Source: an uncultured Gammaproteobacteria bacterium | GTDB taxonomy: Bacteria > Pseudomonadota > Gammaproteobacteria > UBA6002 | Direction: 5' to 3' | Assembly: GCA_963705725.1 (NCBI GenBank) | Contig: CAVPKM010000009.1 | Location: forward strand, 12,051-76,050 | Length of the DNA stretch: 64,000 nucleotides | Part shown: piece by piece, positions 36,909-37,082 of the stretch | How positions within the stretch are numbered: position 1 is the first letter of the stretch | Layout: the number at the start of each line of letters is the position of its first letter | The notes under the pieces: model-generated | What the model was told of the DNA's origin: nothing | The model's input: only the letters and a program-made list of their open reading frames with translations | The model's database searches: none | Program-made: the position numbers and the translations under genes

Positions 36909-37082
36909 GTAACTGTTCAGCACAAATGCTTGAAGTCGCTAAACGTTCAGATTTTAGCTAGATTCGGACAAAAAATTTAATTAAAAAGCGGAGCATACAA
37001 TAAGTAGTGAGCAGTTTTAATTAAGTTTTTTGTTCGAAGATGGCAAAATATGGACGTTTCAACCCTGTGCTGAATAGTTACC
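36909..37082. mobile_element. MITE copy 1 (174 bp): 16-bp TIRs GTAACTrTTCAGCACA and perfect 8-bp TSD ATTTAGAA
   Basis: Left end 'GTAACTGTTCAGCACA'. Right end 'TGTGCTGAATAGTTAC(c)'. Flanked by atttagaa at 36901-36908 and 37083-37090. The right TSD contains the thiL stop codon. Confidence 0.65.

Follow-up and report, generated by a model that had tools for sequence, protein, structure and literature searches.

Short, non-coding repeats that occur in many copies, lie between genes, carry inverted ends and have the potential to fold into hairpins are familiar from the Correia elements of Neisseria, the RUP elements of pneumococcus and the ERIC sequences of enterobacteria. Correia and RUP elements make TA duplications, and we know of no clear target duplication for ERIC. 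To our knowledge, none of the three has the termini or the motifs of the family described below, which resembles them only in these general features. Insertion sequences of the IS66 family, which encode the three genes tnpA, tnpB and tnpC, are 2-3 kb long, and we know of no other IS family that combines GTAA ends with 8-bp duplications. The terminal repeats of IS66 members measure 20-30 bp and usually start with GTAAGCG, and their direct repeats are 8 bp long (PMC11946415). QMITE2 of Coxiella burnetii is an element of 150-190 bp that forms a long hairpin, is commonly found in truncated or deleted forms and has no known transposase partner (Wachter et al., 2018; PMC5896051). Its terminal inverted repeats (TIRs) are 23-29 bp long, and its core is a GC-rich REP of the GTAG type, which is targeted by IS1111; the element folds at -113 kcal/mol, is flanked by direct repeats of 7-9 (up to 11) bp with variable sequence, and often overlaps the 3′ ends of genes by 1-10 bp (PMC5896051). 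The QMITE authors reported no orthologue outside Coxiella for QMITE1 and made no such statement on QMITE2 (PMC5896051). Plasmids of Coxiella carry no QMITE copies.

The DNA analyzed here, referred to as the window, is a stretch of 64 kb (positions 1-64000) that contains three short sequences with inverted ends, and these very probably belong to one family of non-autonomous DNA transposons (MITEs) with a consensus of about 174 nt. The window encodes ThiL, NusB, NrdR, GlyA, RadA, HemB, PurL, PutA and Ppa, and the genes adjacent to the MITEs are on the minus strand. Among 5.8 billion proteins, the closest relatives of ThiL and RadA share 59% and 80% identity, respectively, with the window proteins, and the matches that have a name come from metagenome-assembled genomes (MAGs) labelled Gammaproteobacteria or Legionellales. 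The host is a gammaproteobacterium that is probably intracellular; a host-associated lifestyle is suggested by the large orphan genes in its low-GC stretches and by four proteins with ankyrin repeats. A 4-kb Logan contig (L114), which is an independent assembly of the same organism and begins in the middle of the second MITE copy, differs from the window by a single base. In the window, glyA (39000-40281, minus strand) is split into two overlapping ORFs by an extra A at 39862, and the Logan contig lacks this A and carries an intact glyA of 426 aa. The split gene is probably an assembly error or else a real frameshift variant.

The first copy (36909-37081, plus strand) is a full-length element of 173 nt that forms a near-complete hairpin between thiL and the gene for a 595-aa orphan protein, and it matched positions 1-174 of the family HMM with an E value of 3.5e-38. 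Its left TIR (36909-36924, plus strand) reads GTAACTGTTCAGCACA, and its right TIR (37066-37081, minus strand) reads TGTGCTGAATAGTTAC, the reverse complement of which is GTAACTATTCAGCACA. Further inside lie a left subterminal motif (36942-36954, plus strand; AACGTTCAGATTT), which falls in alignment columns 38-51 that are near-invariant across the family, and a right subterminal motif (37046-37058, minus strand; reverse complement AACGTCCATATTT) in columns 148-161. The element is flanked by a perfect target-site duplication (TSD), ATTTAGAA, at 36901-36908 on the left and 37083-37090 on the right, and the thiL stop codon TAA (37087-37085, minus strand) is inside the right copy. An extra, unexplained C at 37082 separates the right TIR from its duplication. 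Because this base lies outside the TIR, we placed the element proper at 36909-37081; three copies with GTAAC TIRs and 8-bp duplications are present as a sequence-only reading of the window had proposed, and only the right end that it gave for this copy needed to be moved by the intervening base.

The second copy (41696-41872, plus strand) lies between hemB and radA, is 177 nt long and represents a divergent but full-length subfamily, with degenerate TIRs (GTAACTGCTCACGAGG / GTCACTACTCGCCCCA) and an HMM match over positions 1-174 (E value 2.8e-31). Its duplication, TATTCAAC, is perfect: the first copy (41688-41695) contains the radA start codon TTG (41694-41692, minus strand), and the second (41873-41880) begins 6 nt after the hemB stop. 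Rather than sharing only about 80 bp with the first copy, as had been suggested, the second aligns with it from end to end, in the same orientation and with 69% identity. The third copy (55337-55390, plus strand), between ppa and putA, is a 54-nt internal-deletion derivative composed only of the left 46 nt and the final 8 nt of the right terminus. It aligns with the left end of the first copy and matched HMM positions 1-59 (E value 5.6e-05). Its flanks, GGTGTTTA (55329-55336) and GGTGGTTA (55391-55398), agree at 7 of 8 positions, and the ppa stop codon TAA (55398-55396, minus strand) is inside the right one. The description of this copy as an internally deleted form with a TSD thus held, as did the claim that all three insertions touch translation signals, since the thiL stop, the radA TTG and the ppa stop each fall inside a copy of a TSD. 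The third copy lost its interior during or after insertion and is probably dead.

Searches of the window itself recovered the same three elements. The exact 16-mer TIR pattern occurred three times; with up to three mismatches it occurred five times, as compared with 0.88 occurrences expected. An nhmmer model built from the first two copies detected the three copies and no others in the 64-kb window. None of the copies carries a transposase gene, and their sole notable reading frame is one of 42 codons at the second copy. No Rfam family, tRNAs included, reached its gathering score anywhere in window 1-64000, and the copies themselves matched no Rfam family at gathering thresholds. At relaxed thresholds, their sole matches were to generic models of long-hairpin miRNA precursors and scored far below threshold. 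We treat the elements as non-coding and as belonging to no RNA family.

The family extends well beyond the window. A degenerate pattern joining the terminal repeat to the conserved inner block, scanned over one genome per species, gave 43 matches, most of them by chance, from which true members were verified by nhmmer. These reside in the Legionellales MAG CAYGTS01, with five copies plus fragments at contig ends, in the Gammaproteobacteria MAGs CAVRXV01 and CAWARU01, in the Pseudomonadota MAG JBBTCW01 and in GWF2_41_13. A stricter pattern applied to metagenome contigs retrieved 66 loci, many of which have both ends about 173 nt apart. Altogether, the family HMM found 102 matches in the fetched loci, so that the sequence-only reading, which counted further copies as a test of its proposal, is borne out by roughly 100 of them. 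By contrast with these MAGs and metagenomes, a plasmid BLAST with the first copy returned only chance matches of 40 nt in Ligilactobacillus, and viral contigs contained no family member. Full-length copies measure 161-178 nt and short forms 54-122 nt. Short forms comparable to the third copy, with flanking duplications of their own, occur at other loci. A 109-nt form lacks the central ~64 nt and keeps both ends and both inner motifs; it was found at several sites with its own duplication at each and thus appears to be mobile, and it likely marks out the cis-requirements of the element.

Several of the fetched loci hold features of separate interest. Hairpin elements of 181-184 nt in a Thiotrichaceae MAG (L006, 3264-3444) and a Bdellovibrionales MAG (L010, 3950-4133) have GTAACT..TCA termini and an AAC-N-T-YCAKATTT-like inner motif, are otherwise unrelated and lack a clean duplication; mis-binned contigs could account for them, or they could represent distant relatives in other lineages. 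Locus L105 (5193-5364) joins the left flank of the L049 insertion to the right flank of the L076 insertion with one MITE between them, an arrangement that results either from copies having recombined or from a chimeric assembly at the repeat. Other small palindromic repeats also occur, in L014 (~60-130) and L109 (~130-190) among other loci; one of them is a CGTC-type palindrome (CGCTCGCAATGACGG / CCGTCATTGCGAGGAGCG), and GC-rich hairpins are nested inside the MITE copies of L004, L025 and L088. Given these other palindromes and nested hairpins, the genomes contain several families of repeats, nested within one another.

To evaluate the duplications beyond the window, we compiled 40 non-redundant full-length insertions whose ends were set by the HMM alone. 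The 8-bp flanks were identical in 22 and matched at 7 of 8 positions in another seven; with an end adjustment of one or two bases, the numbers rose to 25 and 11, respectively. When the right flanks were shifted by 10-39 nt (~1200 trials), no 8/8 match was found, and 7/8 matches made up 0.17%. The duplicated octamers vary from site to site and have a GC content of 25%, as compared with 41% in the flanks, and GTAAC is present at both ends of nearly all copies. Identical elements occupy different sites with different duplications in three pairs of loci (L024/L026, L067/L075 and L076/L089), which indicates recent movement in those genomes. Together, the 8-bp duplications and the identical copies at different sites identify transposition as the means of spread, and the earlier proposal of transposase-mediated insertion is upheld. 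Recent mobility applies to the genomes with identical copies; the first two copies in the window are only 69% identical to each other, and their intact duplications argue against great age.

An empty site was found for the second copy. In three relatives (L110; L112, which is GCA_013697705.1; and L113), whose RadA proteins are 78-80% identical to that of the window and whose gene order from purL to thiL is the same, hemB overlaps radA by 4 nt. A query from which the second copy and one duplication had been deleted aligned across the junction with L110, and in the alignment of the window with L110 the single gap corresponds to the MITE plus one duplication. Removal of these 185 nt leaves the hemB stop TAA, 6 nt and the radA TTG. 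The 14-21 kb loci of the three relatives contained no family member. Among the fetched loci, hemB-radA was the only site that the empty-site search matched, and no relative was recovered whose sequence extends over ppa-putA, the location of the third copy. The prediction that relatives would have sites lacking the element holds for the second copy in three of them.

The insertion has consequences for radA. Translated from the TTG within the duplication, RadA has the N-terminus MNKNKVFYICQHCG, which matches MNKIKTAYVCQHCG of the relative, indicating that the start codon inside the duplication is the ancestral one. The second copy has parted this codon from its former upstream sequence, and MITE sequence now precedes the radA start. 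The duplicated TTG beside hemB opens a 42-codon frame into the MITE (41879-41751, minus strand). The public radA call (P0122, 420 aa) begins 32 codons past the TTG (window 41598-41694, minus strand) and omits the zinc ribbon, although reading from the TTG gives an uninterrupted frame with homology to the relatives.

At the first copy, synteny with the relatives ends at thiL, which is followed by pgpA in the relatives and by orphan and ankyrin genes in the window. The break on the 3′ side of thiL means that this copy has no orthologous empty site. We rejected the first copy as the cause of the break because its duplication is intact, which also indicates that it inserted after the thiL junction had formed. 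Beyond thiL, the relatives carry pgpA-glpK, both absent from the window. The window has stretches of low GC content (~31%) at 28265-36843, 21101-27240 and 49216-52125. These contain two orphan genes (239 and 595 aa) and encode three ankyrin-repeat proteins in addition to one of 1996 aa that combines such repeats with a GTPase-like N-terminus, and they look like a lineage-specific effector-type region. Direct repeats at 21747-22477 and 25910-26847, which are 76-85% identical and ~4.16-4.37 kb apart, sit inside two ankyrin-repeat genes (21101-22837 and 25147-27240) and suggest a diverged gene duplication.

Folding analyses revealed that the elements are extended hairpins. The predicted RNA folds of the first and second copies have free energies of -52.1 and -62.2 kcal/mol, with z scores of -5.8 and -5.9 against shuffled sequences. 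We aligned eighteen subfamily representatives that are 57-88% identical (alignment A2). Their conserved termini, GTAACTRTTCA(GC), are in inverted orientation, and the terminal helix is 91% paired across the 18 subfamilies. About 35-45 nt from each end lies the inner motif, in its left-arm and right-arm versions as given for the first copy; in most members, the same two positions distinguish the two versions, which places a T-G wobble and a G/A mismatch in the stem. A conserved central AGCGGAG ... TGAGCA block surrounds a small apical stem. The consensus fold is one long hairpin with 56 pairs, in which 91.8% of the cells are paired, as opposed to 79.1% in shuffles (none of 500 reached the observed value) and only 37-48% with slid partners. 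Compensatory double changes were found in 30 of the 56 pairs, whereas 19.5 were expected. Because pairing exceeds that of shuffles and compensatory changes exceed expectation, we conclude that the hairpin arms co-evolve. On the aligned strand, G-U pairs outnumber A-C mismatches by 84 to 22, which is a hint of strand specificity in related sequences whose structure was predicted on the same strand, so that the excess is partly built in.

The sequence-only reading had also raised the possibility that the elements act as terminators or supply ribosome-binding or promoter sequence. Copy 2 sequence does lie upstream of radA; the remainder of that proposal fared poorly. In consensus scans, the interiors of the three copies held no site resembling a promoter or a terminator, and their ends held none resembling a terminator. 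No U-run follows their hairpins, and the arrangement that typifies an intrinsic terminator, a T-run on the gene strand behind a short GC-rich stem, is absent from their interiors and ends alike. According to heuristic gene calls for the 40 insertions, 22 lie between tandem, seven between convergent and ten between divergent genes, and those among tandem genes are co-directional in 13 cases and opposite in nine. These contexts and orientations argue against a dedicated 3′-end or strand-specific role. In about a quarter of the insertions, a gene end lies no more than 12 nt away, which fits AT-rich targets in compact genomes.

These results allow alternative explanations of the repeats themselves to be weighed against the MITE reading. 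That the inverted ends and flanking repeats arose by chance in AT-rich intergenic DNA, or that the elements are REP-like palindromes spread by RAYTs without duplications, could draw on the imperfect duplication of the third copy, the one-base offset of the duplication at the first and the presence of just three copies in the window. However, perfect or near-perfect duplications sit exactly at the boundaries of 29 of 40 independent insertions (22 and seven) at rates that the shifted controls did not approach (0% and 0.17%), the site of the second copy is empty in three relatives, and REP/RAYT palindromes are short, GC-rich, often clustered and without TSDs, whereas the elements here are AT-rich, occur singly and have 8-bp duplications; we consider this explanation to have practically no chance of being correct. 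A more substantive possibility is that the elements are structural or regulatory palindromes selected by the host, such as terminators, mRNA stabilizers or small-RNA genes, and have spread by virtue of their function. The maintenance of the hairpin through compensatory changes would be expected of such palindromes, as would the preponderance of G-U over A-C on one strand (84 to 22), the contact of all three window copies with a start or stop codon, and the precedent of Coxiella QMITE2, which yields a small RNA (PMC5896051). Nevertheless, the copies have neither terminator or promoter consensus sites within them nor U-runs behind their hairpins, their orientation among tandem genes is close to balanced (13 vs. 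9), the spread of sites over tandem, convergent and divergent contexts (22, 7 and 10) leaves no 3′-end specificity, part of the G-U excess stems from the strand used for prediction, and the 8-bp duplications together with identical copies elsewhere point to transposition, making host selection a very improbable origin. The co-evolution of the arms, the G-U excess of ~3-4:1 on one strand and the inner-motif differences shared by most subfamilies are compatible with yet another reading, which we regard as unlikely, namely that the hairpin itself, beyond the two ends, is needed for propagation or tolerance. The three observations could reflect a hairpin intermediate of single-stranded DNA or RNA that is specific to one strand, in an element that nonetheless generates 8-bp duplications of the DDE type. 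They would likewise be compatible with an orphan MITE lineage cross-mobilized by IS66-type enzymes with unrelated ends.

With the MITE reading retained, its relationship to described elements can be considered. Among described elements, the nearest is Coxiella burnetii QMITE2 (CbsR16), and the family might be a diverged relative of it and hence not new. The two are similar in size (161-178 bp here and 150-190 bp in QMITE2), both form single long hairpins with deleted forms, neither has a known transposase partner, their hosts fall in the broad group of intracellular gammaproteobacteria, and some hosts of the present family are labelled Legionellales; the variable direct repeats of 7-9 bp and the overlap with gene 3′ ends are further points of similarity (PMC5896051). 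On the other hand, the family here is AT-rich and has GTAAC termini, AACGTYCAKATTT subterminal motifs and duplications of exactly 8 bp, its window copies fold at only -52 to -62 kcal/mol as opposed to -113 for QMITE2, and inspection of alignment A2 by eye showed no GC-rich GTAG-type palindrome. On these features, we judge kinship with QMITE2 to be improbable. Terminal and subterminal strings of the family matched only unrelated primers or 16S sequences in the searchable literature, and the characterization of the family as previously unnoticed also agrees with the lack of Rfam, plasmid and viral-contig matches. The family thus appears to be undescribed in searchable sources and to span several uncultured lineages, while elements of this kind are well known.

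A different question is which transposase moves the family. At the level of families, IS66 is our best guess: the MITEs may derive from, and be mobilized by, a transposase of that family (tnpC, with tnpA and tnpB), a possibility to which we give somewhat less than even chances. Like IS66 members, the MITEs start with GTAA and duplicate 8 bp of target, their GTAAC start is shared by ISCro1 from an E. coli plasmid, the left end of which begins GTAACCGG... (IRL GTAACCGGCTCATTTAAACCG, IRR GTAAGCGACTCG..., 8-bp duplication CGTTGATC), and L072, a population with recently active copies, has an IS66-family element only 3 kb away from one of its MITEs. This element (~9805-12333; tnpA 9895-10200, tnpB 10227-10574, tnpC 10693-12276) was detected by tblastn with ISCro1 proteins (E values of 1e-43 for TnpC and 2.5e-15 for TnpB). 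However, its ends (GTAAGCGCCGCAYCAACC) share GTAA alone with the MITE and lack the subterminal motifs, and no clean 8-bp duplication was seen around it. More generally, the MITE ends showed no similarity past GTAA(C) to either of these two IS66 members, and ~0.95 Mb of fetched DNA contained no autonomous element with MITE-like ends. The IS66 resemblance noted earlier is therefore confirmed for the GTAA ends and the duplication length, and a cognate transposon was not found. Three kinds of candidate parent IS were rejected: pairs of end motifs 1.2-5.9 kb apart enclose lipB-lipA, rsmA-apaH and other housekeeping genes, a screen for multi-copy ORFs gave only orthologous regions of chance-match genomes, and a truncated copy in L014 has a different palindromic repeat next to it and no transposase.

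We propose that a transposase encoded elsewhere, which we infer to be of the DDE type, would recognize both ends of the element, most likely through the terminal repeat and the subterminal motif, the latter being a candidate transposase binding site. The enzyme would excise or copy the element and insert it at an AT-rich site via an 8-bp staggered cut, the repair of which would leave the 8-bp direct repeat. In the window, the copies are simple insertions that landed in the very short spacers separating co-directional housekeeping genes, and the second split the tightly juxtaposed hemB-radA pair.

Our findings leave the general understanding of how MITEs work unchanged, and they add a documented case with exact 8-bp duplications, clear cis-motifs, a natural minimal derivative of 109 nt and compensatory evolution of the stem. 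The family offers a tractable system for studying the cis requirements of a transposase and for asking if MITEs can be driven by IS66-type enzymes. The insertions that it marks mislead gene callers, as illustrated by the late radA start, and the family HMM and end pattern provide a tool for masking or tracing such elements in MAGs of Legionellales-like bacteria.
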